Below, in pieces: positions 24,134 to 62,466 of a stretch of 63,051 bases of DNA. The position numbers and the translations under genes are program-made. The DNA is taken from assembly GCA_000934665.2 (NCBI GenBank), contig JYFJ02000539.1, forward strand, positions 62,001-125,051. The letters are read 5' to 3'. The notes below the pieces were generated by a model. It saw only the letters and a list, made by a program, of their open reading frames with translations. It was not told the DNA's origin and did no database searches. How positions within the stretch are numbered: position 1 is the first letter of the stretch; each line of letters starts with the position of its first letter. The stretch comes from Catajapyx aquilonaris (Eukaryota).

Positions 24134-27100
24134 CTAATGGCAGTAGTTGCAATTTGGGTGACACTTAATGCCGTTGATGCCACACTTGCACCCAGCTGAA
24201 GTGTCACCTTTCCCCTGAAAAATAAGGGTGTACAAGAGTGTCATTGAAAGATAGAGGGGAATAAGACTAATTACTCACAGCTGGTCCCCAGCGTGGACCT
24301 TTAGTGACCCAGCAGATCTCAGTCTTGCACATGGAGCATCGAACCCAGTCACAGCCCCATTTTTTCAGGAGGACAACCTGGCATGTTGGGCAAGGAAGGG
24401 CTTCCCCTCGGTGAAGCATCTCCTGCAAAGATTTTCGTTTGACGTGACAAATGCTCACCATGCAGGCACCGCCTAAGTCATGCAAGTGTTACAAACCCAA
24501 CCATTTTTCATCCCAAGGCATGAATCCAATTAAATTTTACCCAACACAGAACTCTTGGTCAATATACTTTTTTGTTCAACTGATGGTAGACCATGGTCTA
24601 CTCTACTCGAGTGCTGAACCTGGATTTGGTCTTGGGATAAAATTTCATTGTATAAGATGCCTGGATGAAAATGGCTTGAGCAAAGTGGTACAATAACCAG
24701 ATGCAAGGTACAATGCGGGTTAAAAGTTCACCTCTATCATTTCCCGTGTACGCCTGGCGTCCTCATTGGAAGCTGCTTCCCGCTGCATCTTCTCCTGGTA
24801 CTCCTTGCAATTCATGCCATGGTGAATGGACTGGAAATTCATCAAAAGTGATACAATAACTAGCTCATGGCTGTACTGTGACAACACATGCACCACTTTT
24901 AATACCTGGCAAGTGAGACAGTTGGTGAACAGGCAAACGGGGCACTCAAACTCATTCACATTGTCTTCATAGATGCACCACCCTCGGCAATCTGGCGTTT
25001 TGCAGTGGAAAGCATTCTGGATCTTGTTTTCAGCTTCAGTGATAGACTTGGCCAGGTGCTGTTCATACACATCTTCTGGTACGACCTGCAAAGTGTTTAA
25101 AAACATAAACAAGTTATTTAGCATTTTGTTAGTTGTGTACTGAGGTCAATACTCATTTGTAATTATTTACTCACTGCTTTAATTTCCCTGTCCTGCAAAA
25201 CTCCATCACATGCATAATCGGCATCTCGATATGGACACTTAACCTGTGCTTCTTCTGAGTATGCAATGGTATGTATCAAACAGTCCCTTATGACAAAAAG
25301 AAGTACGGTAAATATCAGGTGAGCATAGTCAAACATCAAGAAATTACAATGTGCACACTACTAATAACACAATATAAAATGTAGGTTGTACCTGCAAAAA
25401 TTGTGCAGACACTCTCGCAGCACAACTCCAGTTTGTGGGGGAACTACATTAAAGCAAATGGGACACTCAATTCTCTCTTGGTTTGGAATTATGTCATTAT
25501 TTTCTAGATCAACCATTCGCAGAAAATTCTCATAGCGTTCGGCTTCATGGTTCTCCTGTTCTGCTATGATAACCTGCAAAGCAAAACTGCGTCAGTTTGG
25601 GCAACATTCAATACTGTATTGTTGCTGTATGAATAAATATCCTCTTTATATCACTACCAAGGAATGTCTCGGTATAGGAGTTCTCTCGGATTTTGATTTT
25701 TAGATGCGAGTAAAATAATAATTTTAATACTCCTACAGCAAACCAGTGCTTGCAACAATGTAAAAATTACTTTGGAGGCATTGGGGCAAATTAATTTCAA
25801 ATTATATTTTCTTCTACTGCTCTCCCATGACTTCACCTTCTAATATTAACCAAAGGCCATTACAATAATATTGCAAAATGAGTAGAAACACGTAACAGAT
25901 ATCAGCAACAGATACAAGCAAACAAGACAAAAGAGAGACAAATACCTTCCACTGAGGATTCATGCATGTTTGTTTTGTTTTTTGACATCACATTGTGGAG
26001 CACTGATTCCTCAGATACTGCAAGTCAGAGAGATTGACATGTGTCCCACATTATTAGTCTCAAGCAAGAAATGTTATTCACAGAGGAAAAGAAGCCACAG
26101 TAAAAGGTGATTTGTGTGAGAGAAGGTTGCAGTCACACCTGTTCGAGTTCCTGCTCCTGTTTTGCCTCTCTCTGGGCCCTCTCCTGCTCAGCCTCAGTCA
26201 ACTGGTATCCTGCTGGAATCTTGTAATTAGCTGGCCTGTCGGCAGCACAGGCTTCACATCCAGGACGAGTCGGTTCATTTACAAGAGTACACACTTCACA
26301 CATCCATCCTTTAAGGAAATATTAATTCCTGCAGTCATTTGCAATACACTACACATGGCGATCTTCCGCCAAGAAATCAAGATGAACCTATAGGACACCT
26401 ATACACCCACTCTAATAATATTTATTCGAAATTGTTTCAAAATTGGCTATGGGTTGTTCCCACTGACAGTGCACTTGGTAGTGAACTTTCCAACTTTAGG
26501 GAGTCACTGAGCATGACAGGTTTTAGGCTTTGGTCACTTGGCACTTGAGAATGTGCATGAAAAATTGGGATGCTCAAAGTGCCAGGAAGAGACTGATGTT
26601 GAACAGAGTGGCTGTCTGAGCATTTCCCAGTACATACTAACCAACATTTGTGGAACAAGACCTAAGAAGATCACTGAATACATACCAAGCACTTCTTCCT
26701 CCTCACTTTCTTCCTCTTCCTCCTCCTCCTCCTCCTTGTCTTCAATGACACCACTTGGCTTCTCATCTGCATTTGTCATGCTTCCTGTCCCATTAGGAGC
26801 AGCTGATTTAATTTCCTCTTGATTTTCAGCACTTCCATCCTTCTGTGGAGTTGGTTCCCTGGTAATAAGCACAAATGATTTATAGCTAATCAGCAACTAA
26901 TGTATCAGGTCCAATAATACCTGGTGCTAGCTGAACTGGCAGAACTCGAGTCACAGTAACTGTAACGATCCTCCTCAAAGTTATAATAAAGACCTTTCCT
27001 CAGAGGAGAAGGTGCAGGTTTGGGTGGCGGAGATTTGGAAACACTGTTTTCCACTTCCTGTGTGGTGGTGACGACAGGCGCTTCTTCTGGGACAGGTTCT

Positions 27101-30100
27101 AGTTCCAAAGAGGTGTCAAATGTAGACCCAAAAAGAATAAGAGTCAGTGTGTGGACAGCAGCCTGCAGGCTTCCTGGAGGCGACTGAACCCAAGTATACC
27201 TGGTGCCACAAGGTAGAGGAAAACTGGGCAGTGGTCACTATCTACGCTGTAGCTGGATAGGGTCCTGCTGTCATCTGTAGCAAGCTGGCGACCCAAGATC
27301 CACCTCTGCACGTTGGTGGGTATCTCCCAGTCTTGCTCCACCTTCTGCTTCAGCTGCCCAACTGTCATGCATGAGGTAACTTGGATAGGGATGGGGCCAT
27401 GGTGTGACACCTTGTCTTCCACAAACATGTCTACCCTATTTGAAGAGATAATGTGTAAGGCATTTTATACTAATTTGTCTGAGCTGGGCATGTGCATTAT
27501 GCAGCAACTCGATCTTACTTGATAGGCTTTGGCCCTTCTTGCAGAATGCGGCTCTCTCCATCCTTGAATCTTGTTACAGAGCATTGGATCTTAAGCAGGG
27601 CCAATTCCTGTGCCATTACAGCAGCCTCTTGATGTTGGCCACCAGCTATTGCAGCCTCCAATTTCTTCAATAACTTGTTCACAGCCAAGGTGTTGGTGTT
27701 ATTCAGCATTGGTGCAGCTTGCAAGTTGGCTGCAAAGGCATTATTTATGATAGGTCATTTTGCATATCGTTGGCCGGCGATCAAAACCTCGTAACTCCAT
27801 TTTACGCGAAAATGGACTTACGTACCTCGTAAGTCCCTTTGCACAACTTTGCAAAGGTGTACATGAATTCAACATCATCCTCATGAAAGGTAAGGTTTAC
27901 GTTATGCTATACTGTAGGAATAATTGTCAGCATGAATAGAAAACATGATTTTACAAAATGTTTTTTGTCCCTCCTGTAAAATTTGGTCTTGAGGAGTTAC
28001 GAAGTTTTGATCGCCGGCCAACCATATGCCAAGGAGATTCCAATCAAGTCAAAGGGTTACAGTTCAAAAGCAGATAAGAGGACATCTGGTGTTACTGGTC
28101 AATCATATAAGCCACTGTATAACCTAAATTAATGCTCTATGTAGTCTATGGTAATCAAGTATCACAGCTGGCAGTTAAAATGATATGCACAAACACAAAA
28201 TATGTTCTGAGCATCATAAGGTGAACACGACTTCACCTATGCAGCACAGACTGATTACTTTCAAGACACAAGTCAATGATGATTTAGTACAACTAACATT
28301 GCAAATCCAAAGTTCATTTGCCTGTATAGTGTCAGCCCCTGTTTACCCACAGTAATTGGTTCCAAGTCCCTAAGCAGATACGTGAAATCTGTATATAAAC
28401 CAAACCCTAATAAAATCCTTTATTACAAATATGGAAAGACATGAATTAATATACATCTGGGAAGGGAAAAAATGCATTTCAACCTGATTTACTGATTGAG
28501 AACTGCACTTTCTCACTTTATTAAGAAGGAAGTAACGGGACAGTTATCGGCCCACATTTTTGTAAACTCTCAAAATGTTCAGTAGTTAACCATCTTCGCA
28601 AGTCAACAATCAACAGGTGTTATCTTCAAATAAACATTCAGCTATCATTAGTATAGTAGAATTATTGACAACTATTCACCAGCACTTCATTATTTAGCAA
28701 CCCACCTTTAAAATCAGCTAACCCCTTTGGACCACTCAGCTGAGCAGCCAGCTTGTCAACTTCTTTCAAGTAGGCAAAATAGCTTGGATTCCCCCCAAAA
28801 AGTTGTGGAGGGTCATCCCTGTGGCCATTCCTGGCCTTGGAAAATTCAAACAGCTCTTTCTGAGCCGGCTGCACTGTCGGATAGTGCACTTGACCTGTTG
28901 CATTTTTCTCTGGTGCAAAATTATTGGAAAAGCGCTTACGTTGGTTTTTAGGCACCGGGGATTTTGGAGGCAGCTTGGCTGGGGACTGTGGTGGTGTTTC
29001 AAACTGCTGGCTCCCAACCGCACTATCCACTGATGGCGCCTTAACCTGGGACTGAGGTGAAGAATTGTGAGTATCACTTTGGGATGGGGAACAAGTGGGT
29101 GAGATTGGCTTCTGGGACCGGCCTGCCTTTGAGCGAGCACCTGTTCTGGTGGCAAAGTCCTTTGCACCAATCAGTTCAAAAGTGCCTGTCTTGGTTAACG
29201 ATGTGTACAAAACTCCACTTTTGAGATTTAATTGGTCCTCTTCACTGTCTTTGGGTGCCTTTCGCAACACAGCACTTGTTTGTGCTGATGTGGACACTTT
29301 CTCTGGTCTTTCTGCAAGGAAGGAACGGTCCTTCAGGTTCTCGTAGATATGTTCCTGGGGCCCTTGGTTGATAAAAGTTGACTTGGGTCTTGCTTGGGCT
29401 CCTTTCTTCAATTCCATGTCTGGCACTGAAGACATTGAAGCACTATTTCTCAATCCAACTTTGTCTAGCAATTCAGACAGCCCTTCAGTTACGACAGCAA
29501 TTCCTTTTCCAAACCTTCCTGTTCTTGTTTTTGGGCTCGAATCAGCAGTTGGCACAGTACCAGGTTGTGGAATGAATGGCACTGAATTGTTCATAGGGAG
29601 GAGGGATGTCACAACAGATTTACAACTTTCAGCTTGTTCCACCTTACCACTTTCAGATCCTTCCTTTTGAACACCTGAAGCCAATTTTGGGGAGCTTGGC
29701 TTTTTGACAATGGCTGAGGGTTCCTTAGGTCTCACTGACATGACCTTGGAGACATTAACTTGTGTCTCTTTTGTCTGAGAGGTAATGGAACTGGAGGATT
29801 TGGACTGCTGAAGTTGGTGCCTGGCACTGGCTTCCCGCCTTAGTGCCATGGACACATTAATTTTGCTCTCCAACTTCTCCAGCTTCCCGAGAGTGATCAT
29901 GACAGCTGACGTCATCTGGCTAATGTTTTCTGTTGGAGTTTTGGGTTTCTGCGCTTCAGTGGCACTGCTATCACTCAACTCATTCTCCTTCTCATCGGGC
30001 TTGGCTTTGTTAAAATACAAAAGGCGGGCCTGTCGCATTTCCTCAACTGTTGGTTTCTTGGAAACATCCTCAGTTGCAGGCTTGTTTATCCCATCCTCAT

Positions 30101-32840
30101 TTTGGGGAGAATCTTCTTCTTCTCTGGTTGTTCCCTGAGTGTCACCTTTGAGTAGTTCCTTTTTCAAATCTTGCGGCAATTTGCCTCCTATGAAAGTAGA
30201 AGGAAAGTTCTTTACAGCAGACCTGCTTTCACCTGGACTTTGGGGTTCAACATTAGCACTGATTGCAGTAGGCTGTGCATCTGCTTCAGATTTGGTTGCT
30301 ACTTGAGCGGAAGCTTCGACCTGTTTCATATCTTGTAATTTTCCTCCAATAAAAGTAGATGGAAATTTACTCTTCACCCCTGGACTAGCTTCCAATGGGC
30401 TCTGAGGTCTGCACTTAACGATGCTCGCTACTGTTTGTGAGGATTTTGATTCGCCAACATCTTTCTTCTGTTGAACAGGGCTGGACGGTCCCTTTTCCCC
30501 TTCGAGCTGCTCCATTTCCTTCTGGGCAGCTACCTGATTCACTCTTGCTTCCAAAGCTAAAACTTTCTGCATGACATCACTACGTGAGACATCCAAAATG
30601 CGAGGCTTCTGCTTCTCTTCCTCCGCTTTCATGTCAAAAGCAAATGGAGAGCCGCTTGTCTGAAATACTGTTGCTTTCTCCTTCACATCCATATCCTTGG
30701 TCTGAATCAGATTTTTCGCCTCATCTGAACCACTTGGTGGAAAATATCTCTTCATTTCAGCTTCCCAATTCTTTGGCTCTGGCTTACTGATCTGTCCAGT
30801 GGCAGGCTCCTTCCTAGTGTAACAGGCATCACAGATGGGACTCCACCATGGGTTAATCAGTGTACACCGACAACACTCCCAATTCCTGTTGGCTGAACTC
30901 ACTGCCTCCGCTTCCTTGCTAGTCTCCTGAATTGGTCCAAGAGGGACAAAGCTTTTTGTGGGGTCATCCAGAGTTGACACAGGGGTCCCAACTGAGCTGC
31001 TCGATTCAGATGTCTCAGCAATGGTGGGGATGCTCGGGCTGGGTGAGTTGTGGCGGTTCTGTCTGTTGTATTCATATATGCTCTGAGATTTGGAAGATGG
31101 TGGGGTAACTGGCTTGTATTCAATAGCCTTTACTTCCTCTTTCTTTTCAAATTTTGCAATCCACTCAGAAATGTCATCATCTGAATCCGAAGAGTCAGAT
31201 GCAATTCGTCGCCTTCCATTTGCAAGAGGTGATCTCCCATTTTGTTGGCATGGGTACAGACTAGTGTTAATAACAATCTTGGAAACATTGAATGAGTTGA
31301 AGAAAGAAATCAGTTCCTTTGCTGACTGTGGTTTGGAAGGTGAATCCAAGTCTGAGTTCAAGTTTGTCTCAAAATTGACATTCCCATTCACTTCTCTAAC
31401 AACCCCCGTGTCTGGTGATATATAGTACCGCTCGTTTTCTGCTTCTCGGGCAGCTCTTATCCTCTCTTGCTCCTTCTGCACTATTTCCAAAGCTTCACGG
31501 TCGATCTCACTGAAGGTGGCCAGCATTGACACTGCTGATTTCCTCCTGTTATCCTCCTCTGCTGCTGCAATCCCAACCCTTGGCACCCCAACTTCAGGCA
31601 TCCATGGTTCTTCTTTCTTCTTCTCCAGGGTCTTGGACTTGGAATTGTTAGCATTCCTCTTGTACCATGGCCTGGGTGACAGTGTGGCTTTGTTCTCCTC
31701 CTTATCCTTGCTCTCCACTTTGGACAGCTCTTTAGCATGCTTCAACATACCTCTCTCCAGTTTCAGCGAGTCATTAGAAAATGATTCTTTTTCATCCTCA
31801 CTGGTGTCATCATCTTCATTCCTTCGAGCAAATTCAGGTGACCCCATGCTACGTCGATATGCATGCGCCTTCAATCTGGATATGTTGTCTATCAGCATCC
31901 TCCGTTGCTCCCCAGACAGGTGTGACTTTCCAGGTGACCAATCAGCTTGAATTTCTTTGTTCTCCTTGGGAGGCTGTGGAGCAGCTTTCTTTTTCCCGAA
32001 GCTTCCAGATGAACTCTTGGATAATCGATGCCCCCTGATGAGTGAGCGAGGTGACTCTGAATCTGACGCTGTAGCCCCTGGTGGTGGTGGTGGTGCCTTC
32101 CGCTTCCCCTTAACATGACAGTGGCCTTTCTTATCTCCACCCGAGTCACTGGAGCTCCGTTTGTGGCCTAAAGATGTGACAGGTGTTATGTTGAGAATAT
32201 GGTTTGACTTGTTATGAGACTCAAGAGTACTTGGGAGGCTCAGGTCATTATATGACCCACCTGACTCCCTCTTTGCATTGGGTGCAGCAGGTGGTGGGGG
32301 TGCACGACGCTTCTTCCGTCTCAGTGAAGAAAATGGACTGAAGCCTGCACCTGATCTGGGACGTGGAAAGTCATCGTCACTGGATTCTATTGGCAGTGAC
32401 TCACATGAAGCCAAGTGATATTTGCTTTTCAAGGATAGCTTCCGTTCATCTCGAGCTCCCTTCCTGTATGTCTCATCGCTGAATCCTGCAAGGCTGCGCT
32501 TCTGGCCCTCTGTTGGACCACGATATGAAGTGACTGGCAAAACTGCAAAGCTGCTTGCTGTGCTCACCAACGTGTTGATGCTCCCATTGCTGCTGTGGGT
32601 GCTGCGGTGGCTCAGAGTAGGTGAAACAGCCTCAATCACAGGTTTAACTGGCATTTCCACCTCTTCCTTTCCCTTGCGAAACCAACGGAAGATTGACAGA
32701 AACCCACCCTTCTCCTTGATTGACCCCCCTGTACTTGATTCAGTCCTCCCTAGTGTTGAATCGTCATTGGAAACTCCAGGTGAAGTGCTTTTGGAGTGTT
32801 CCCGTCCACTGTGCAGAGCATCCTTTCTTCGCCAACTCAT
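24134..32840 (-). CDS. RBCK1: HOIL-1L/RBCK1-like RBR E3 ubiquitin ligase (LUBAC subunit) with a long N-terminal extension
   Basis: Exons 32840-28706, 27729-27519 (LTM-like LEAAIAGG...AAVMAQELA), 27435-27200 (UBL: VED...QRWILGRQL...FLYL), 27098-26921, 26858-26686, 26308-26139 ([23 protein letters not shown]), 25573-25392 and 25286-25175 (RING1), 25085-24906 and 24830-24732 (IBR), 24422-24279 and 24214-24134 (RING2 [32 protein letters not shown]...CHPNCNYCH*). Phases sum to 1966 aa. Joining the giant first exon is inferred from a phase-1 match. Confidence 0.92.
27768..28023. mobile_element. 256-bp MITE with ~30-bp TIRs and ATAT target duplication (Sola1-like target pattern)
   Basis: TIR (c/g)GTTGGCCGGCGATCAAAAC(c/t)TCGTAACTCC at both ends; ATAT at 27764-27767 and 28024-28027; lies in an RBCK1 intron. 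Confidence 0.8.
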
Positions 32841-35155
32841 CTTCTTACTTGCCTTTGCGCCTTTGACACATTAACAAGCCTTCAGTCCTGCCTCCCATTG
32901 TTTGTACTCCAGCCATTTCCTTGGCTGAAATCAGATGAATCACCAAGTCAGTTTTCCAGAAGCGAGGAGTCTTCTTTTTCCCAGGTTAGTAATAAATGCC
33001 ACATCTCCATCATGCTCTCCTCAGCGTACAGGCCAGATCCCAAGAAGCCAAATCCCATGTGTCATGAACTAAACAGCTACATTTTCTCACTGTTATATTT
33101 TGGCATTCCATTGGCAAATTGTCAGGAAAGGTACAATGGCGCAGTTCACACTTGTCACTTGTTTAATGGGTTCATATTTAAAATGGAAAATGTAACACTA
33201 AATTGAATGAAAAATCTTGCAATAGTAACAATATTAGTTAAAATCCAATGTACAAAGCAATCTACTTCACAAAATGATAATTCATGCATTTTCAACACAT
33301 TGCCGTATTTAAATATTTTCAACACAAAAAAAAACTGCAAAATCTTATTATCGATGTACCTCTGGCCTTGAACTCTTTGTTGCATGGGAATCAGAATGTG
33401 AAGGTGGGAGAGATGAGCTGCCATATTGCACGATAGTCTTGTAAAAATCTGCAGAGAAAAGGCGTAATTTATTATTCACATTATTTTTTAGTCACCTTGC
33501 CTCCTGTAATAGCATTAATACTTAGCATGTAATAGCTGGAGTTATAATCAAGCGAATAATTCAACAATGAATAAATAAAATGCAATAATTACCTGAGGAA
33601 CTTTGACACTGGCCAAGTCTCACTTTTAACTGAATGAGTACAGAGCTAACCATGACATACACGTGTACAGAAAAAATGTAACAAAACAACACAGCTGGCC
33701 TATAACAGATTACTAAGAACTCACTTGTCAGAGAGGTTGATGACATTTGCTTATGTGATGTCCTATTTGCAAAATTTAAACAATGGAATTCAACACAGCC
33801 ACAGCATAAAACTTGTCCATAAGTCTAGGTGGAATTGGATCTGAATGGAGGCAATGAGGTCTTTGGCTCTCTGGCACTGCTGACCTTGGGAGTTTTTCTA
33901 GTGTCATACTGCACTGAATCATCACATGCAGCACGGCATGACAGGGACTTCTTTTTTGCAAGGTAGTGGTGCAGCACCAGGTTGCAAAAGTTTGTTTGTC
34001 CATCGGCTTAGTCATAAAGGCAACCAGTGAGTAATTAGATATGGAGGAAGAATGATGGGGAATACACCCACCTATGTGCCTACCACACATCCTCTCAAAT
34101 GAAAGTGAGCCACTCAACCATGCCTAGAAATGGTTATGAATAAGTTCAGGTAAAAATATGCGAAAAATCTGGACAGGTCTTACATATACCATTGTCATTT
34201 GTGATTCCCATCTGAATTATATGAGAGCCAGAAAATATTCCCAAGGGGACCCTGGGCAGATGTTATCAGGTCCATGGAATTTGTCATGGCATGTGTGGCA
34301 TGTGTGGCACCTTTGGTCATTATAGTGGGGGAACAATCCCAATAGTCTTAGGGAGTACACTTGAATAAACCATGCATTCTAAGACATTTTTGCATCTTTT
34401 CCTTTCGACTCCTCCCTCTATCCCATGCCAGTCATGTTACCGGTCTTTGTATTTGTTGGTGAGGTCCCTTTGGCTCTCCATTCAGATGAGAGCCAAATTT
34501 GAAGCCTTGGTAGATAAGGCATGTCGAGATTTTTTACATATTTATACCTGAACATATTTGTAACCCTGTCTATACATATGGTTCACTGACTCACTTTCAT
34601 CTGAGTCAACCTTCTAATTACCCTAGGATATGATACAAGACACTTTCCAAGAATTTTTTCTTCTAGAGACAGTTGGAATGATGTTGGGAAGTTTCTTTTC
34701 AGTGCTTCTCTCAGCTGGTCTATTTTTAATGCTGCATGAAAAGCCACATGTTTACAAAATTTGTGGCCCAAATGGTTACATCCAATGCTACAACACTTCA
34801 AACCTGTATTGGAATTTGCAGACCCTGGTGCTTTTAGATATTTAGATATACCAAAATGTAATGAATGTCACATTGTCAAATTAAATTAGAAGCCCCACCA
34901 GTTTTGATTGGCCAATTTCCAAGCAAATCTAACAAGCACCACATAAAAATATCCTGCAGCACAAAATAATGGAGAGCTACCTGTGAGAAATTCCAGTGAA
35001 AATAAAAGGACTCTAGGTTTTATACGTCAGTTAAGCCCAACATGAATGTCACTTCCACTGCAGAGTCTCAAAAAAGGCAGGGAAGCTTAGGTCACTGACA
35101 CTATAAGGGTGTTCCTAGAGTGGCACATTAACTACTATTTCAAGGTGATGCTTAC

Positions 35156-39197: not shown

Positions 39198-39767
39198 CAG
39201 GGTGGTCGGTAAATGGTGGACAAGCTTCAGGTAGCGAGATTCCTTGTGAAAAATCAGTATATGGAAGTGAAGGTCATATTGTTCTACGAGGCCTGAGTAG
39301 GGCTCACGAGGCCTCCAAAGTTTGGGCCAAATCATGACGTCACATCCGCCCGTGAAATTCAAACACTACCGTATCACTACCGTACGCGGCGTGTTGCTAG
39401 GCGTTGCCATGTTGACATCTACCACAAGTTCCCCAAACAATGGAACCGTATAAACTCGCCGGGACGTTGCCAGGAACTCGACGAGGACGATATGGCAATG
39501 CCTGGCAACGTCCCAGCCAGTTTATACGGTTCCATTGTTTGGTGAACATGTGGTAGATGTCAACATGGCAACGCCTAGCAACACGCCGCGTACAGTAGTG
39601 TTTGAATTTCGCTGGGTGGATGTGACGTCATGATTTGGCCCAAACTTTGGAGGCCTCGTGAGCCCTACTCAGGCCTCGTAGAGCAATATGACCTTCACTT
39701 CCATATATTGATTTTTCACAAGGAATCTCGCTACCTGAAGCTTGTCTGCCATTTACCGACCACCCTG
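39198..39767. mobile_element. 570-bp fold-back Tc1/mariner-type MITE
   Basis: TA|CAGGGTGGTCGGTAAATGG...CCATTTACCGACCACCCTG|TA; the two ~270-bp arms are near-perfect reverse complements around a short spacer. Confidence 0.9.
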
Positions 39768-39911: not shown

Positions 39912-40255
39912 CAGTCTTGCTCATCCTCCTGAAGTCACCCTCCTTCATCAGTGAATTGATAGGAACCAGTAGCCCGCATCCACCTCTGGCTCTGAACAAG
40001 CGCCGGTTACCCCAAACGCCCTCGGTTCCTTGGGGGATCATTTCATCCTGTCAGAACAAAACCATAAGAAGCCAGCCTCCAACGCAAGCCATCAGGACAA
40101 CTTACAAACTCCACTCCGATGGTCCAGTCGGGCCCCATCTCCCCCAGCTTCCCAATCCACTTGACCACCCCTCCGATGGGCCTGGGCGAGTTGTCGTGTC
40201 CGAACCACACCACCCGCTCCCCCACCAGTACCGGCAGACCCGGCACGCACGCCAT
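39912..40255 (-). CDS. Two-exon CYLD-like CAP-Gly domain module (probable alternative 5' coding exons of the RBCK1-like gene)
   Basis: Exons 40255-40106 (MACVPGLPVLVGERVVWFGHDNSPRPIGGVVKWIGKLGEMGPDWTIGVEF|gtaagt) and 40047-39912 (ctgacag|DEMIPQGTEGVWGNRRLFRARGGCGLLVPINSLMKEGDFRRMSKT G|gtgagt), 58-nt intron. Homologous to CYLD exons 62466-62246 and 62009-61871. Confidence 0.85.
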
Positions 40256-41103: not shown

Positions 41104-43301
41104 TCATTGTAGCTTCATGTCAGTACAGAAACAAAACTTCTTGAGGTCTGTGTCAGACACACAAGCACTTTGGTTACCGTAGGAGTTAATTCGGAGCACG
41201 TCTCCAACCATTCTAAACTGCTGTGTCTTTGGTGTGTGAATGCATTCTGCCTGGAAGTGAGCACTTCCAGGATCCGTGTGGAAGTTTACCACATAGGTTT
41301 GAGCTTTTAAGTCGCCGTCACAAGTCTCTGGGCCGTACCTGTAAGCTCCTACAATGCTTTTCGTGGACAGGGAGGCGCAATGTTTGTTTGCTGAGATGAG
41401 ATCATTTAACTGGGATAGACTGTATGCTACAGCGTCTTTGACCACTGACTGAGAAGGGTCCACTGCGGTGAATGCCCGACACTTGCACCATTGCTGTGAG
41501 ATTCCAGCTTCTTGGCATGACCTGCTTGGTGGGATGGATTTGAATAAACTTACACCGTGCTTAGACCGTGGTTCTGGTAGGGGTTCCGAGTCTGCCGTGT
41601 CCAGAATATCCCTCAAGGTCTCGTAAACATCAAATGTGCTTGTAAGTCGCTTGGAATTAATTGCAACATTTGCAGTTTCTTCTGGATATGCACGACGAAA
41701 CCAAGGAGGAAGCCACAAAAACAGCATAGGTAAACTTTCTTCCATCCAGCCACCCATGGTTTCACGGATTCGGCCATACCGCAACCCATGATCACTAAAG
41801 AACAACACGACAGTATTATTCATCGCGTCAGATCTGCCTTCACCTTCAAACAATTTCTTCAGAAGCTGATAGTAAGGTTCACCAGCAATGTAGCCAGTGT
41901 TGACGTCGTCGTGTGTCAAAGAAGTTGTCCAGAAAAAGGCAAAATAAGGGTTATTTCTGAACTTCCAGGTGAAGTCCAGAGTGTACTCATTCAGAATATC
42001 GGCTGCTAAACGATCTCCAAAACAAACTTTCAAGCTGTTCATTTGGATAGCTGGCAATTCCTTTTCCGCAGAAAGAAACAGTGGCCTCAAGTAATAATCT
42101 GTTGGCTGCTCCACAAATCCCGTTTTTTCGTTATTAAAATTTCCGCGATATGTAAGGTCTTCGCCATAGGCAGTGATGTACCCTTTTTTGCTGAATGCTT
42201 CCCAAATAAAAGGGCAACTGTCTAATTTAGATAGTTGTCTTGGCCAACAAAATCTCTCAAGTTGTTCCTCAAAATACCCTAAAACAAAAAATTAATGAGC
42301 TGCATAATTACACGAAATGACTTCATACGTGCTTTCAAGAGCCATACCTGTTAGTAACACACTTAAATTTGGCCATGTATTTTCTTCAACTTTTGTGTAC
42401 CCTTTAAATTCAATTGCTCCCTGTTTCTTAAGGTAGTGGATGGCATCTGGCAAAATCCTTCTCGATTGTGCTCGTGAGACTGAATCCAGCCCAATTAGAA
42501 GAAGGCTAAGTGGCCGTGTTGTTTTTTCAAATAACTTATGTGCTTGAGCCATCTTTTTCTCGACAAATTGCGATACTTGTGGATATGCATAGTGACGTCG
42601 ATAGACTTCCTTGTTCTTGTATTTGCACCTGATGCGTATCCAGTCGTGCTCAATAGTTGCCGAAGAGGTGAACACAATACAGCTGCCGACTGTCCTGAAA
42701 TTACAGGGATCATAATCAAGCATTCCCTGCATTACCACGAAGGGTATTGCTTCAGGTGAAAGAAAAACCATAACAAACAGCGACGAAGACCCAACCTGTA
42801 CTCGTTATCCGCCGACCTATCGTAGGAATTCGGATCCTGCGTCACTCGTGCAATTTTCTCGTAGCAACACTGAAGTCTGTTAGGATCATTTATATTATGG
42901 TAATGCAGGGAACCATAGTTGATTTGAATTGTGGAGCCTTCCTTGATGACGAGGGGCGGTATTGTTGTGCAGTTGAGTGTTATGGGTGACACAAGCTTCA
43001 TGATATCATCACTGAATGGATCAACTTCTGGGATTTTACAACCTGAGGTGTAAATTGCGTACTTGGTCTTGTTTTCGGTGTCTAAACAAAAGAGGTACGT
43101 TTTAGTTTCGACTTTATATCCAAGCATGTACAGTAGTAGGCCTGTATGTGCCGGAAATTGATACTCACAATGCACAAATGGCCCCATATGATACCTCCAA
43201 GAGTTGTGGTCATACATGAAGTACTTTGCAAAATATAGGGTTACAAAACCAGATGCAATAATCCATACCAAATGATACTTCGCCTTCATGTTCATCTTCA
43301 T
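41104..43301 (-). CDS. DUF229-family protein (alkaline phosphatase/sulfatase superfamily), predicted type II membrane protein
   Basis: Exons 43301-43169, 43081-42796, 42694-42348, 42278-41104 (646 aa). N-terminal hydrophobic anchor; motifs GCKIP, IGLDSVSR, GYTKVEENTWPNL, CPFIW, QPTDYYLRP, SLTHDD, SDHGLRYG, RLTSTFDVYETL and a C-terminal RINSYGNQSAC...FCFC. Confidence 0.88.
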
Positions 43302-43384
43302 AATCTATCCACAAGTCACAAAATTCTGCGAAAGAGGAACCGGGTATAATATGACATTGTAGCACCAGAGTTAGCACAGTTAAT

Positions 43385-56126: not shown

Positions 56127-59100
56127 TCATTTGTACATGGAGACGTCACAACTCCTGTACATGCACATGTACGCATCACAGAAGAGGCGTCGCGCATGCT
56201 CCTTCAGCTTGCGGTCCTCCTTTTCCTCCAGAAAGACCCGGCTTCCCTCCTCCGACAGCCACTCGGGGAGCTCAGGACAGTGGACCATCTCAGGGATGTT
56301 GTATCCATGTTGCTCACCTGGAGTCAGAAATACGTCAGGTTTTCTTCAACATTCTTGTGACAGTGTGACTTGCCTTTTCGATCAGCCATGGAGTCAAAGA
56401 AGCACCAAGGGGCATCAGGCCCACTCCCACACTTGACAAAGGCAACATAGTGCGAGGTCTCGATGCAGACAACACTGAAGAGTTCCATGTAGAGCCTTGG
56501 GATGGAAGAGTGGTCCTTCAGTTCGGTGAACTGGGAGGGAACCATAAGTTGCCGGGCTTGATGGGCACTCCTCTTTTTGTGGCTGTGAGCCTGTCAATTG
56601 TTCAAGGTTATTGTCTTGGTAATGTTGCCCAGTTGGACCTTAGTACCTTTTCAATGCATGGTAGGCAAAATGAGATGCTCTCGAGGCCATTTCCACACTG
56701 CCCGTAGCATTCCTTGCACTCATACTCTGCTAGCTTGCCACATATGATGCATTGGCGAGGAGCTGTGTGAGAAAATTGGGATGACTCGTGATATCAATTA
56801 ATAACAAAATATAAGCTTTTGAAAATATTTCTCACAATTTTCAATCACATCTGTGACATCTAGAAGAGGTGATGGCAATATCCTGGGGTACATCTTGTAG
56901 GACTTTCCAAAACGAGGCATCTGGATGATGAGGCAAGATGGTACCTACGAAGAATACAAATAAATGTTACCTTTGCATAGCTTCTCAGATTTTAGACATG
57001 CCGTAAGTGGGGGTGACTTTGTGACAGTTTTTGAGGTTTTTCATATCAGCAGAAACGGATTAATGTTTTGTTGATTATTGCACCCTCCTCCTTCCTCTAC
57101 ATATCTGTACATGCAGACCACATCGATAGCTTTATCCTTTACAAAAATATTCACATTTGTGACAGTGATTATTTCCTTACGGTTAAACGTGATAAACAGA
57201 AAATATAACAAAGTAACCCCACAAACTCTTTATTTTACACAAATTTTCGCTTTTACAATGATATATTATTAATAAAATTAATCATTTATCATGTAATATT
57301 ATGAAACACATTTGGTCATATTTTTGGTCTTTTAGTTCAGGTCCTTAACTTCCTCATGTCCTAGGCGGCTCATTTCTTTGGATTTTCATGTGGATGTGTA
57401 CAATTTCGAGTGGTATGGTACCCTAAAGGACTGGACCATAGGTCAAACCAGTCAATACTGTAATATCCTTGGACTGACTTCGTGACAAGTTTATGCTGTC
57501 ACTAAGTCACCCCGCAAAAGAACCAAATTCATCGAACACCCTCGTATCTTCTACAAAACAAGTATAAATATGATCAAGTTATATCATTTGAGGGGTGTGG
57601 TGGAAAAAGGTAATAACCCACAAAAGTGTAATTTTTCAGAAGAGCGAATTTAAGTTAAGGGTATGCTGGTTTTGATCGAGTCTGTGTGACCGTCTCATGC
57701 ATAATACGTGAACTTGGAGTATACCAACCTGTCTGGCATGTCTTTTACATATGGTTGCTAGGTATTCAGGTCAAAAATGACAATAAGTGAGGGTCATCAC
57801 CTTTTTCCACCACACTCGCATTTCTTAGCCAATGAATTTTTCTTCAAAATAATGTACATGTTTACTCTCTTCGCAACTACGCCGGTAGCTATTAGGGAAA
57901 GTAGTCAGATGTGCCAACAATACTCGCAGTTTGCAAACTTGGAATATGACTGCCAATAATGCTGGAGGTGTAGGAGCTTTCCAAGTTGGCTACAAGGTAG
58001 CACAACATACGTAGCCATCTATTGGGGCTGGTTGCAGTCAAAAAGGTTGAATAATAACTGAGCAAGATTCGAAAAACAAATTTGTTACTAAGTCACCCCC
58101 ACTTATGGTAATCAAATTCAAAATTCCCAGTAACACTGTGTAGATTAACATATCAGCATAGTTAAAGTGCTAATTAATTGCACCAATTTACAGGAACTTT
58201 GCTTTTTTCCCTTCCAATTTTGACTTGATTCCAATAAATGATTGAACTGACCTCTTTGAGTTTGAGATTGCTGGATAGGAAGCTCTGCTCAAACAGCTGT
58301 TGCACACTTGGAAAGAACAGCCTTTCATCCTTCTCCACAAATAGCTGATAGAAGAAGGCTTCCTGCCCAGAATTCAGCTTCAGAAAGGACTCGGCCTTTA
58401 GAATCTGGGAGAGCAGGGAGTTGAGGAACTCCTCAGGGTCTGGAGGAATTAGGTGGAAAAAAAAGTATGAGCAGAATGAAACCGTCAGATACCCAAGATA
58501 CAAATATGAGACACGATACCTTTCTCCTCACTGGTCAAGCCAGTGACAGAGCTGAGATTCTCTAACAGGGTCCTCAACTTCATGACTCTGTCAGCTGCAA
58601 CATACATGTTGAGCCTCAAGGGGTTTACTATTTCTTCTCTCAACACCCTCTGCACCTCTGTGTATTGAGGGATATCACCCTCCATCGCAGGACGGTACAG
58701 GACACCATCAAAAACACTACAAAAATGTCAGAGGTAAGCTTGCACATATATTCACATCTACGCATGTGCTATAAATTTGCAAAGTAAAAACTGACCATGT
58801 GAAGGCAAACATCCCAAAAAGGGTTGCATCCAAATAACATGAGTTGTGATGTCCTTGTATTCCACGGTACTTTCCAAACATGGTCATTTCAGTCAGGTCA
58901 CTCACAGGAGGTACAATTCCAGGAATCACTGAAAAATGAAATCAAATTACAGAAATGTGAATCCAGTACAATGCAAGGAAGGTGGAGTTGGCTTGTAACT
59001 AACCTTGCTCCATACTGTTTTCCAATCCATTTCGATGGCCATCCATAAAACGACGGTCCTTCCGACAGAGCTTCACATTTGCAAAAATCGCCTTCCTGGG

Positions 59101-62100
59101 TGGGCATGAAAACAACCTCTCACCGTTCAGTGTCCCGTCAGTGGCATGAGGATATTCTGCTTCCTATACCAGAGAAAACCCATCATTATAAATTTTGCAG
59201 ACTGAAGCAATCCCGCAGTGGCCACACTAACCATTTCCAGCCCTGCAACGTGCTTAATTTCCCCCATGTCCGTAATGTCTCCCAGCCATCTTATGACCCC
59301 ATGCAGGACAACACCATCCCCAAGCTTGAGCTCTACAGCTGATCCTATGCCTAGGTCCTCATTTCTGCTCGATGTGCTCTGGTCATAAGAGGGGACATCA
59401 AGGAAGTTGGCTGGCAGCAAGTTGTCATCCTCAGGATCTTTGACATGCTCATCAATACCTGAAAGAGAAGGGGCGTGTTTCTCTTACTTTAGAATATGCA
59501 GAAGCGTACCATCTAGTGACTACAAAAGTTCATCATGAGATTAAAATTTGACTTCAAATCAAATGGTCACAGGTGTTTTAAAACAGTCTTGCTGTAACAG
59601 TTCCATATGGTGCACTCCTTTTAAACCAGCTTCAATGTTGTAACAACACAGTACATTGTCCCATTGGAAATTGTGCAAATCTTTCATCCCTCACCTCAGA
59701 TTACTGAGTTCGTGCACCAGTTAGGAATCCTTCAAGGTACAGGTGGGTATGATGTCGTGCAAACAGCTCATGAGCTGAGTCCAAATGAAACTACTGCCTT
59801 TAAGATTTTAATGACTCACTCACTTCTGTTATGGTGGTGGGCAACATAGCATCAAAACATTGGCTGGCAGTCTAGTTTTTGACGTGAATATGTCTATAAA
59901 ATCGGATCAGTAACGAAAAAGCGTTACAGACAGGGCCCAGCCAGGGGGAGCCTGAGCAAGGTCTACTATATCCGAGGTGGCGTGGGCGCAAGGTCTACTA
60001 TAGCCGAGGTGGCATGTGAGCAAAGTCTACTCTATCTGAGGTGGGCGTATGAGCGTTACAGTCAGGGCCCTGCCAGGGATGACAAACTAACCATGCATGT
60101 GTCCAGATTTTAGGGTCACAATGTAGGTCCCAGTCCCGTGACGGACTGGCATGCAGGGTGCTTAGGGTCGCCATGCATGGGTCCAGACTTTAGGGTCGCC
60201 ATGCATGGGTCCAGACTTTAGGGTCGCCATGCATGGGTCCAGACTTTAGGGTCGCCATGCATGGGTCCAGACTTTAGGGTCACCATCCGTGTGTCCAGAC
60301 TTCAATACTGATAATAAACAATCAATTCACTCCCCCCAATACTGATCCGATTTTAAAGATGTATTCACGTTCCCGACACAACCTGATGTGTGTTGTTTTT
60401 TTTAAACTTTCAAGGTTGATGAGGAATATGCCAGGTGACACCCAGTGACAATGTCATGACTATGCCACATTACTACATCTTACTGCTACCTTGCAATGCA
60501 AGTAAAAAGGAGTTGCATGATATAAGCAGGGAAACACCCAGAGCTACTTCTATTTTTAGGATTCCTGGCCATACTTTCTAAGGTCATTCTGCCAAGTACT
60601 TTGTGGGGGACTTTGCTCTCGCCATGCTTGCAAGGGTAAGCACTGTAATAGGTTTCCAATGTTTCTCAATCCAGCTTCCGCTCCAAGTGTTATGAGAATA
60701 CAAATTCTATATATGTTTTTGGGTTTCTTATCCCTAACTGGACCACTTGCATCCTGAAATGAGGTCAGTTGGGCGTCAAAACATATTTTTTGTCCTTGTG
60801 TTGTTTTCAAAAACAAACTAGTACCAACATGCAGGGAGTGACTTTCGAAAGATAGTTTATGTACACCTTACATTATGCACAGGATAAGCAGATATGATGC
60901 TCTAAAAATTTACTGATCCTGTGTTCCACGGTCACTGCTGATGCGCAAAGGAGTTCCCACATTCTGATGTAAGAAACAAAATATCCCAAAAAACACTCAC
61001 CATGGCCGTATGTCCGGTTGACTGTTGCTTGGTTACTAATGGGCTCCTCATAGAGGTGTGACAGTACATTGTTCTGAAGGGCAGGCTCCACACCAGGTCC
61101 TTTTCTTCTGGACACTGTGTCAGGTATCCTGGAAGAGGAGAACCTTTCCTGGACGGCTAGACCTGAGCAATCTCGGTCTGTTCCTGACTGCTGTGTGGCC
61201 ACACTGGACTTCCTCTCTGATGATGAGTTCCTGGCTGATGACCACGTCTTGAACTCTTGGTGGTAAGGGTCCAATTGCATACTTGAAATGTTGGTTGACA
61301 TGCTGTCACTTGTCACTGAGCTGTGCCTACTCAGTGAAGGGACCCTAACAATTTAAAAATTAATTAACCATGTGAAATCAAAATATTTGTGTGGTTACTA
61401 TAATAAAAGTGCTGTGCATGTAAACCAATACATGTAGTGAGAAGAAAAACATGACAAATTGTAATTCAGACTTCAAAGGATTATGCAAACTCCATCTAAA
61501 TCATTAACATCATTACAAAAATACACATGATTCAAAGCAATGCATCACCAGATTTTGTTGGCACAGCAGAATGCAAGAACTTACCCTTCTCTTTTAAAAT
61601 TTCTGCTTCCCACTCCATTTGAATGCTTCCCCACTCCGGTCCAGGTAGAAACTTTTGCTACAGAGTCTCCATGTAATGCGAAGCTCTCTCCATGTGCTAA
61701 GTCATGCATAAATTCAGTATCAGGAACAGATGATGAGTATAGTTCTGAGTGACCTCGTCTAGGTATTGGATCAGCATTCCTCATGTTTGAATCTGCAAAG
61801 AAGAATTTTTTAAGGCAATGGCATTATATGTGACCCTCACACAAGCATCATCTGCGTATTTATGGCCAACCTGAATCTGAATGCCTCCTTCCACAAAAAT
61901 CATCTGCTTTGATCAATGCTGCAATTGGAATCAGTCCTCCATGCTTCTTATGAGTGGAGAACAACTTCTTCCCTTTGAAGCTACCATCACCTGTACCCAC
62001 AGGATTATCCTAAAAAATTATAATTATTATTAGCAACACTTCTCATTAATGGAATATTTACAAGCACTATTAATATTTGACACAATTACTGTTGGCAGAA

Positions 62101-62466
62101 TCACATTTGCAACCCACATAATAATCATCCCTTGATACCTCCCCACCTTCAAATAAATGCTACAAGATCAGCCAAAAACAAACCACCAGCAGGAATAATT
62201 GTTCAAATGCACTGAGGGTGACATAATCTTCTCTTTTTAACTCACAAATTCAACTCCTGCAAAAACATCTCCATCCTGTCCCAGTCGTCCCAGCCACTTC
62301 ACCACACCATATTCAGGTTTATTTTCATTAAGCCAAACCACCCTCTCTTCCACTTTAACTGGCAAATTTTCATGACATTCAGATGGTGTAGCTGCAGACT
62401 TCTTTTTCATGTAAAGGTTTAGCTGGAGCGTGGACGAGGAGGTTTTTGAGGCATCACCAGTATTGC
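56127..62466 (-). CDS. CYLD: Ubiquitin carboxyl-terminal hydrolase CYLD (two CAP-Gly domains + USP domain with B-box)
   Basis: Exons 62466-62246, 62009-61871 (CAP-Gly), 61792-61585, 61344-61001, 59458-59232, 59163-59004 (CAP-Gly), 58928-58796 ([13 protein letters not shown], catalytic Cys), 58716-58520, 58439-58252, 56944-56836 (QMPRFGK), 56762-56647 (B-box), 56590-56374 (IETSHY...FFDSMAD), 56317-56127. Start is either the ATG at 62410 or further upstream. Confidence 0.95.
57001..58108. mobile_element. 1.1-kb pogo/Tc1-like MITE in a CYLD intron
   Basis: TIR CC(g/a)TAAGTGGGGGTGACTT at both ends, right end followed by TA; internal TIR-like copy GTCACTAAGTCACCCC near 57498. Confidence 0.8.
59954..60050. 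repeat. 32-bp tandem repeat x3
   Basis: Units GAGCAAGGTCTACTATATCCGAGGTGGCGTGG at 59954, 59986 and 60018 (diverged). Confidence 0.85.
60163..60302. repeat. 28-bp tandem repeat x5
   Basis: TAGGGTCGCCATGCATGGGTCCAGACTT at 60163, 60191, 60219, 60247 (identical) and 60275 (diverged). Confidence 0.95.

Follow-up and report, generated by a model that had tools for sequence, protein, structure and literature searches.

A putative CYLD-related CAP-Gly domain as the predicted N-terminus of a long-form RBCK1 (HOIL-1) in Catajapyx aquilonaris and other arthropods

In a 63,051-nucleotide stretch of the Catajapyx aquilonaris genome (contig JYFJ02000539.1, positions 62,001 to 125,051 of the forward strand; hereafter the window), two small exons on the minus strand are, in all likelihood, the first coding exons of the long form of arthropod RBCK1 (HOIL-1), and appear to encode a CAP-Gly domain that is a paralogue of the second-type CAP-Gly domain of CYLD and was acquired in the distant past. 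According to this sequence-based reading, the RBCK1 gene would run from 40255 to 24134 on the minus strand, starting with the CAP-Gly exons, and its main product would carry an N-terminal CAP-Gly domain followed by a low-complexity region of ~1385 residues with an internal NZF, and then by the LTM, UBL, NZF and RING1-IBR-RING2 domains. Shorter forms may be produced when the giant exon is skipped (683 aa) or when translation starts at the ATGs at 32840 or 27709. The CAP-Gly domain probably entered RBCK1 as a two-exon unit before the chelicerate-insect divergence. The corrected gene model would thus unite the CAP-Gly exons, the giant exon and the RBCK1 exons in one gene of about 16 kb. The CAP-Gly exons and their counterpart in the neighbouring CYLD gene are as follows:

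40106..40255, minus strand: RBCK1 coding exon 1 (150 nt), first half of the CAP-Gly domain, ending in GVEF
39912..40047, minus strand: RBCK1 coding exon 2 (136 nt), remainder of the CAP-Gly domain, its loop degenerate (QGTEG)
61871..62410, minus strand: paralogous CAP-Gly domain of CYLD (second-type), in two exons (62410-62246 and 62009-61871)

Exon 1 opens with an ATG (40255-40253) in good context, preceded by an in-frame stop 22 codons 5', and ends at a phase-0 donor (TTT/GTAAGT) directly after GVEF. It is separated by an intron of 58 nt from exon 2, which lies between the acceptor ...TGACAG and a phase-1 donor (CTG/GTGAGT) and whose frame is stop-free up to that donor. The start codon lies 7 residues ahead of the CAP-Gly domain, like that of the orthologues. 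The CYLD gene is located 22 kb upstream of these exons on the same strand, with a DUF229 gene (41107-43304) sitting in between. Its CAP-Gly copy, which starts with an ATG at 62410 and has a second exon of 139 nt (vs 136 nt in RBCK1), shares the intron position, the phase-0 intron after GVEF and the phase-1 donor. The original prediction, made from the sequence alone, held that the two exons encode a CAP-Gly domain that aligns with the first CAP-Gly of the CYLD gene. This is borne out, since the spliced 95-residue modules are 44% identical (pairwise BLASTP, E = 2e-20) and their Smith-Waterman score of 157 compares with 26 +/- 4.6 in 2000 shuffles (maximum 59, z = 28). The short matches that it quoted were likewise found as described (9/12 and 8/10 identical, with GVEF/D in both), and the LF...L(V/I)PI pattern in the second exons is common to the two copies, albeit with a spacer of 8 residues and not 7.

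Exon 1 alone scores 14.6 bits against Pfam CAP_GLY (PF01302; E = 0.032), under the cut-off of 26.5 bits, exon 2 alone has no Pfam match, and the first and second exons of the CYLD copy score 17.1 and 26.6 bits, respectively. A homologue search with exon 1 alone gave seven candidates, none of them at E <= 0.01. By tblastn, exon 1 is 63% identical to residues 15-56 of Cryptotermes RBCK1 and 51% identical to residues 12-51 of Cimex RBCK1, and exon 2 matches Cimex residues 52-92 and Cryptotermes residues 64-110. The spliced module scores 100 bits on a profile of 14 orthologous domains from which the window was excluded, and of the 14 positions conserved to 85% or more across 18 orthologous domains it retains 13. 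Assignment of the two exons to the 3' end of the upstream DUF229 gene was rejected, as the match to the DUF229 profile extends to position 495 of 496 and the frame closes with a stop.

Downstream of the CAP-Gly exons, the predicted RBCK1 gene comprises the following parts:

28706..32860, minus strand: giant RBCK1 exon of ~1385-1402 codons, rich in Ser, Lys, Glu and Pro; its 5' edge at 32860 is weak and provisional
30822..30881, minus strand: internal NZF/RanBP2-type zinc-finger core (W-x-C-x2-C-x3-N-x6-C-x2-C) within the giant exon, read from the translation
27519..27729, minus strand: RBCK1 LTM exon, with a phase-1 acceptor and a phase-2 donor
27200..27435, minus strand: RBCK1 UBL exon (Pfam ubiquitin 31.6 bits, E = 1.4e-7, above the cut-off; tblastn matches)
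26686..27098, minus strand: two acidic linker exons (27098-26921 and 26858-26686)
26139..26308, minus strand: RBCK1 NZF exon (tblastn match at 26309-26136)
24134..25573, minus strand: RBR module in six exons (25573-25392, 25286-25175, 25085-24906, 24830-24732, 24422-24279 and 24214-24134)

Two routes lead in frame from the CAP-Gly exons into these parts, both of which had been foreseen: with no stop ahead of the exon 2 donor, a join from 39912 to 27729 gives an open frame of 683 aa, and a join from 39912 to the weak phase-1 acceptor at 32860 (9/20 pyrimidines), followed by 28706 to 27729, brings in the giant exon and gives an open frame of 2068 aa. Every junction is canonical (GT/AG) in the 683-aa and 2068-aa forms alike, and the exon model is open through to the TAG stop at 24136-24134. 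The giant open frame itself spans 32870-28668 and has a phase-1 donor (AAG/GTGGGT) at 28706. The acceptor at 32924 looks stronger, yet from there a stop is met in all three frames. A mini-exon from 32924 to about 32849 (donor CAA/GTAAGA, acceptor 32808) was discarded, as the intron that it implies is only about 40 nt long. The original prediction had treated the direct splice as the main form and the giant exon as an optional extra, a view that we have had to reverse: Blattella RBCK1 aligns with the giant exon at 32810-30738 (E = 3e-78), Cimex RBCK1 aligns at 32705-30822 and 29354-29151, and the 28706 to 27729 join gives ...DFK-A-NL..., which matches ...DFKADL... ahead of the LTM in Cryptotermes (conserved DFKA(D/N)L). 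Given the orthologue alignments and this junction, the giant exon is part of the predicted RBCK1 gene, and the main predicted product is probably the form of ~2068 aa that includes it. The internal zinc finger aligns with that of Gryllus RBCK1 (31067-30789), and Pfam places a Zn_ribbon_RanBP match inside two further orthologues (P0227 and P0256); a Pfam search of the whole giant ORF from the window gave nothing at E <= 0.01.

The LTM exon has a Pfam LTM match under the cut-off (17.6 bits, E = 0.0036) and is 66% identical by tblastn to residues 247-302 of the Cryptotermes protein, and the linker exons carry a conserved ...YYN.EEDRYS.C... stretch in common with Cryptotermes. Five of the six orthologues tried by tblastn match the NZF exon, that of Varroa (P0089) having no match there. 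The RBR exons give Pfam RING and IBR matches, all under the cut-offs on single exons, and are 42-86% identical to orthologues by tblastn, the RING2 exons reaching 75-86% identity to insect RBCK1. From single-exon Pfam matches, colinear alignment and the open exon model, LTM, UBL, NZF and RING1-IBR-RING2 follow one another in order within one gene. In Cimex RBCK1 (P0074, 1908 aa), the alignments to the two CAP-Gly exons, the giant exon and the LTM, UBL, NZF and RBR exons follow one another in this order, and the same is true of the Cryptotermes protein (P0001), whose alignment takes in the final 22 codons of the giant exon and then the LTM exon. Two ATGs lie downstream of the CAP-Gly exons, one in the giant exon (32840-32838), at which a CAP-Gly-less isoform could begin, and one, in frame, in the LTM exon (27709-27707), which we take to be the position where vertebrate HOIL-1L starts.

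To gauge how widely this architecture occurs, we drew on several searches. That with the RBCK1 IBR exon found 201 relatives, the best 120 of which are counted here. Most arthropod RBCK1 proteins among the matches listed are 1200-1900 aa long, several times the size of the vertebrate protein. A Pfam CAP_GLY match is present in 3 of the 120 (Cryptotermes, Cimex and Varroa); the other 117 show no CAP-Gly, and among these are the models of Blattella, Halyomorpha, Rhodnius and Gryllus. They include hemipteran and cockroach models whose start lies in or before the giant region. The CAP-Gly head may be optional or alternatively used, may have been lost in some lineages (many Holometabola), or may have been missed in annotation. 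A CYLD-free profile, which combined the two exons of the window with three orthologues, was used for an exhaustive search of 1.84 billion representatives, which returned 1674 proteins at E <= 0.001. The best 150 of these, plus the Cryptotermes and Varroa proteins (152 in all), were rescored domain by domain. The top places were taken by proteins with an N-terminal CAP-Gly, at least ten of which also match the window's UBL and RBR exons, and all ten RBR-positive CAP-Gly representatives pass the Pfam CAP_GLY cut-off (31-54 bits vs 26.5).

Species names were supplied by a second, word-based search with a wider profile. With Cimex added from the IBR-exon search, the fusion is annotated in 15 named species: the Hemiptera Cimex, Homalodisca and Laodelphax, the blattodean Cryptotermes, the ticks Rhipicephalus, Dermacentor, Ornithodoros and Ixodes, the mite Varroa, the spiders Argiope, Larinioides, Nephila, Stegodyphus and Oedothorax, and the horseshoe crab Tachypleus. 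In the Laodelphax model the CAP-Gly comes with neither a UBL nor an RBR match, and many orthologue models were predicted automatically. No CAP-Gly-bearing RBCK1 from outside the arthropods was found among the matches of the wider-profile search. The combination of CAP-Gly, UBL, NZF and RBR, for which the original prediction had proposed searching arthropod proteomes, is annotated in chelicerates and insects alike, and its central suggestion that the module is the N-terminus of RBCK1 agrees with orthologous single proteins that bear both. Nine complete, uninterrupted ORFs (1387-1983 aa) with an N-terminal CAP-Gly, a UBL and an RBR/RING nearly fill contigs of 4591-7498 nt, the RING of one of them (P0296) being known solely from the precomputed Pfam column. 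As the gene is rich in introns, these contigs are best read as mRNA assemblies, which would place head and ligase on one mRNA in relatives. The tick isoforms X5 and X7 (809 and 812 aa) are short of ~650 central residues net relative to the 1411-aa Ornithodoros protein, and by analogy a short CAP-Gly-to-LTM form with the giant exon skipped, corresponding to the 683-aa frame, is plausible. Short Logan proteins (467-593 aa) examined for such a form were partial or did not include the region.

To place the RBCK1 head among CAP-Gly domains, we compared it with those of CYLD, which fall into first, second and third types. In the ranking by the CYLD-free profile, RBCK1-type domains come first and are followed, among the matches listed, by the second CAP-Gly of USP-bearing CYLD proteins; in the exhaustive search this second domain scores 50-88 bits, and the other two CAP-Glys of these proteins, the first and the third, score 10-54 bits. 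The same holds for 12 named invertebrate CYLDs picked by hand from the wider-profile search, in all of which the second-type domain is best (51-89 bits, other domains <= 46); in the CYLD of one fish it is not the best and scores 18 bits. In the opposite direction, all 15 RBCK1-type domains have the CYLD second-type profile as their top match among those not built from RBCK1, and they score 53-119 bits on it, compared with 35-47 on the first-type, 32-58 on the third-type and 28-50 on other CAP-Gly profiles, so that the margin is about 4-72 bits. The window's RBCK1 module scores 72 bits on the second-type profile vs 37-39 on the other groups, and the neighbouring CYLD copy scores 111 bits. The RBCK1 domain of the horseshoe crab Tachypleus, at 119 bits, is level with a genuine CYLD domain. 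Of the RBCK1 heads, those of chelicerates have departed least from CYLD.

Phylogenies point the same way with moderate support. A quick tree of 161 rows has a clade of RBCK1-type and CYLD second-type domains (SH-aLRT 96), and the two group at 85/88 in a careful tree of 64 rows, in which the first-type (98/88) and third-type (100/98) domains form clades of their own and the window module falls inside an insect-like RBCK1 clade (96/94). Approximately unbiased (AU) tests did not reject a single clade of RBCK1-type and CYLD third-type domains (p = 0.17) or a single clade of all CYLD domains with the RBCK1-type outside (p = 0.29), as the alignment has only 85 columns. The profile and tree checks that the original prediction had called for thus support its view that the module is akin to CYLD, in that the nearest relatives outside RBCK1 are CYLD CAP-Glys of the second type, and they leave these two alternative topologies standing; kinship of the RBCK1 CAP-Gly with the CYLD second type is accordingly a conclusion of moderate strength. 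The window module is 51-55% identical to termite-like RBCK1 modules and 44% to the neighbouring CYLD copy, and since each copy in the window is nearer to its own orthologues, the duplication would be ancient. Second-type CYLD domains were found by the wider-profile search in molluscs, a priapulid, a nemertean, a tardigrade and arthropods, and their wide occurrence, set beside an RBCK1 head seen only in arthropods, makes it likely that the domain passed from CYLD into RBCK1, on the arthropod stem.

The proximity of the two genes had led the original prediction to a local exon duplication, and the idea that the neighbouring CYLD gave its first CAP-Gly exons to RBCK1 recently, within this lineage, draws on the spacing of 22 kb, with both genes on one strand and a single DUF229 gene separating them, and on the identical exon structure and phases of the copies. 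We now consider this highly improbable. The copies are only 44% identical and very unlike in GC content (66% and 54% vs 42% and 43%); the window module is nearer to termite-like RBCK1 and belongs to an RBCK1-only clade (support 86 and 96/94), so each copy groups with its own orthologues; and the fusion is present in ticks, mites, spiders, a horseshoe crab and insects. In Argiope, moreover, CYLD and RBCK1 are on contigs of unequal length (146,223,468 vs 123,632,096 nt), and the 22-kb linkage in the window is either a relic or due to chance. Ancient acquisition from CYLD, the origin that we favour, could also be wrong in its source: the RBCK1 CAP-Gly could stem independently from some other family of CAP-Glys, or stand as the sister group of the CYLD domains as a whole. 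The AU values of 0.29 for CYLD monophyly and 0.17 for the third-type grouping are compatible with this, as is a comparison with human structures in which TBCB-like and CLIP domains (1e-10) precede CYLD CAP-Gly3 (5e-8), and the fold ranking singles out no CYLD domain. Such an origin seems improbable to us nonetheless, in view of the preference of all 15 RBCK1-type domains for the second-type profile by margins of about 4-72 bits, the CYLD second domains that are the next-best single domains on the CYLD-free profile (among the matches listed), the 119 bits of the horseshoe-crab domain, and the intron positions and phases common to both.

A different objection concerns the gene itself, as the CAP-Gly exons might here be unjoined to RBCK1, either as a separate small gene or as a decaying remnant, with RBCK1 starting at ATG 32840 or 27709. 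Near its 5' end the giant exon offers just one acceptor in the right phase, and a weak one; use of the strong acceptor at 32924 would yield a frame with the CAP-Gly alone, closed by a stop some 25 codons later. The loop has degenerated further than those of the orthologues, exon 2 is missed by Pfam, and many relatives' models are without the head. Set against this are an intact start codon, frame and canonical splice sites, the 13 of 14 conserved positions that are kept, a phase that suits both downstream acceptors, and an exon order colinear with single orthologous proteins and mRNA-like contigs, and we regard a separation of the exons from RBCK1 as quite improbable.

A CAP-Gly fold is predicted for the RBCK1 head as modelled on an orthologue. 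The model of this orthologous domain (P0130, alignment A2) has a pLDDT of 86.2, and all matches listed in a Foldseek search of the PDB, down to rank 42, are CAP-Gly domains. The RBCK1 profile (A1) matches solved CAP-Glys at 1e-10, the best human structures being TBCB-like and CLIP, with human CYLD CAP-Gly3 at 5e-8; neither the solved-structure nor the fold rankings separate CYLD from other CAP-Glys. A whole invertebrate CYLD (P0137) matched the human CAP-Gly1 and CAP-Gly3 structures and not 1whm, the human CAP-Gly2, so the second type is equivalent to human CAP-Gly2 by position only. In canonical CAP-Glys, the GKNDG loop forms the pocket for EEY/F tails (tubulin/EB). This loop of tail-binding domains is absent from the window domain, and its degeneracy in both window copies had been predicted correctly: the aligned loop is QGTEG in RBCK1 and GTGDG in CYLD. 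RBCK1 orthologues have PYGGIDG (insects) or VGSGDG (chelicerates) at this place, with no Lys-Asn, and the window loop is one residue shorter than the insect loop, whose first Gly it does not have.

In the immune signalling of vertebrates, Met1/K63 ubiquitin signals are a common target of HOIL-1 and of CYLD, which removes such chains. Elliott et al. (PMC8511506) describe ubiquitin binding by human CYLD CAP-Gly2, and not by CAP-Gly1 and six other CAP-Glys; in the same source, vertebrate CYLD reaches LUBAC via SPATA2. By analogy, we tentatively favour a recruiting role for the RBCK1 CAP-Gly, through ubiquitin or a shared partner, over binding to microtubule tails, a preference that we hold with considerable doubt. 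As human CAP-Gly2 scores only 17.7 bits on the RBCK1 profile, a transfer of ubiquitin binding to the arthropod head is a long inference. A bolder conjecture, which we think unlikely as a whole, is that arthropod HOIL-1 carries a ubiquitin-binding copy of CYLD CAP-Gly2, by which ligase and deubiquitinase would be drawn to the same ubiquitin or partner without an adaptor of the SPATA2 type, the 22-kb linkage being a trace of an exon duplication in the stem lineage. If a CYLD-type CAP-Gly and a 1400-residue extension are indeed part of the ligase, arthropod linear/ester ubiquitin signalling would be wired unlike the vertebrate textbook scheme, and the domain would offer a handle on the binding of ubiquitin, tubulin or an IMD-pathway partner.

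The architecture is already visible in public arthropod gene models and seemingly unstudied: a full-text literature search turned up no description of a CAP-Gly on the HOIL-1 of arthropods, and passages in PMC5090701, PMC12154395 and PMC9543601 deal with LUBEL and CYLD of Drosophila, LUBEL of shrimp and LUBAC of vertebrates. The closest known counterparts of the window gene are the arthropod RBCK1 long forms, such as Cimex lectularius LOC106670617 (1908 aa) and Homalodisca vitripennis LOC124364747 isoform X3 (1993 aa), which have the same order of parts: CAP-Gly, a long low-complexity region with an internal zinc finger, LTM, UBL, NZF and RBR. They are uncharacterised automatic models, and their identity to the window is only about 40-57% overall, so that the window species is not closely represented among the annotated long forms. 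Vertebrate HOIL-1L/RBCK1 shares with the window the LTM, UBL, NZF and RING1-IBR-RING2 in the same order. It is a LUBAC subunit of about 500 aa and has neither the CAP-Gly nor the giant region. The second CAP-Gly of CYLD resembles the RBCK1 head in having a loop of the G-x-G-D-G type instead of GKNDG, but it resides in a USP deubiquitinase, whereas the RBCK1 head resides in an RBR ligase, and in vertebrates this domain has diverged, the fish domain and human 1whm scoring 18 and 17.7 bits on the RBCK1-side profiles. Finally, the canonical CAP-Glys (CLIP-170, CLIP-115, p150Glued and TBCB) share their fold and Pfam family with the RBCK1 head but differ in the GKNDG loop, which is replaced in RBCK1 heads.

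In both searches with profiles of the RBCK1-type CAP-Gly, ranking by whole protein placed P0121-P0123 and P0270, database proteins containing as many as 21 CAP-Gly repeats, at the top; P0123 and P0270 come from the foraminifer Reticulomyxa filosa. This position arises because the scores of the repeats are summed, and does not reflect closeness to the RBCK1 domain. A related CAP-Gly was also observed in other ligase architectures (P0267, P0349 and P0351), one of which combines RRM, CAP-Gly and RING, while the other two, from the gastropods Babylonia and Batillaria, carry the CAP-Gly in a RING/B-box (TRIM-like) protein. The second CAP-Gly of CYLD is much more diverged in vertebrates (fish P0324; the human domain of PDB 1whm) than in invertebrates, and with one profile the fish P0324 domain scored 18 bits, compared with 51-89 bits for invertebrate second domains.

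The following features accompany the RBCK1 and CYLD exons in the window:

10269-16916, plus strand: multi-C2H2 zinc-finger gene, with a 1357-codon exon and more zinc-finger exons
27759-28032: MITE-like element, inverted arms of 40 nt, 93% complementary, spaced 194 nt
39265-39700: nested set of inverted repeats, arms of 100 nt (95% complementary) and 87 nt (98% complementary)
41107-43304, minus strand: DUF229-family gene, two open frames matching Pfam PF02995 at 309.6 and 79.1 bits
44436-46368: large inverted repeat, arm lengths 513 nt (98%) and 315 nt (97%)
59060-59350 (approximate), minus strand: third-type CAP-Gly of CYLD

The DUF229-family gene is flanked by CYLD and RBCK1, all three on one strand, and the large inverted repeat lies upstream of it. 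The nested repeats, which give rise to mirror-image open frames on both strands, are located within the intron immediately downstream of CAP-Gly exon 2, and the MITE-like element sits just upstream of the LTM exon of RBCK1. In the zinc-finger gene, the 1357-codon exon has a GC content of 61-64%, as against ~43% for the rest of the window, and the additional zinc-finger exons fall at ~15559-16916.

The CYLD of the window contains two CAP-Glys only, of the second and third types, and in the latter an intron directly follows GLEM, the position that matches the intron after GVEF. Palaemon and Cloeon CYLDs likewise have only these two types, whereas spider, sea-spider, mollusc and priapulid CYLDs contain three CAP-Glys.
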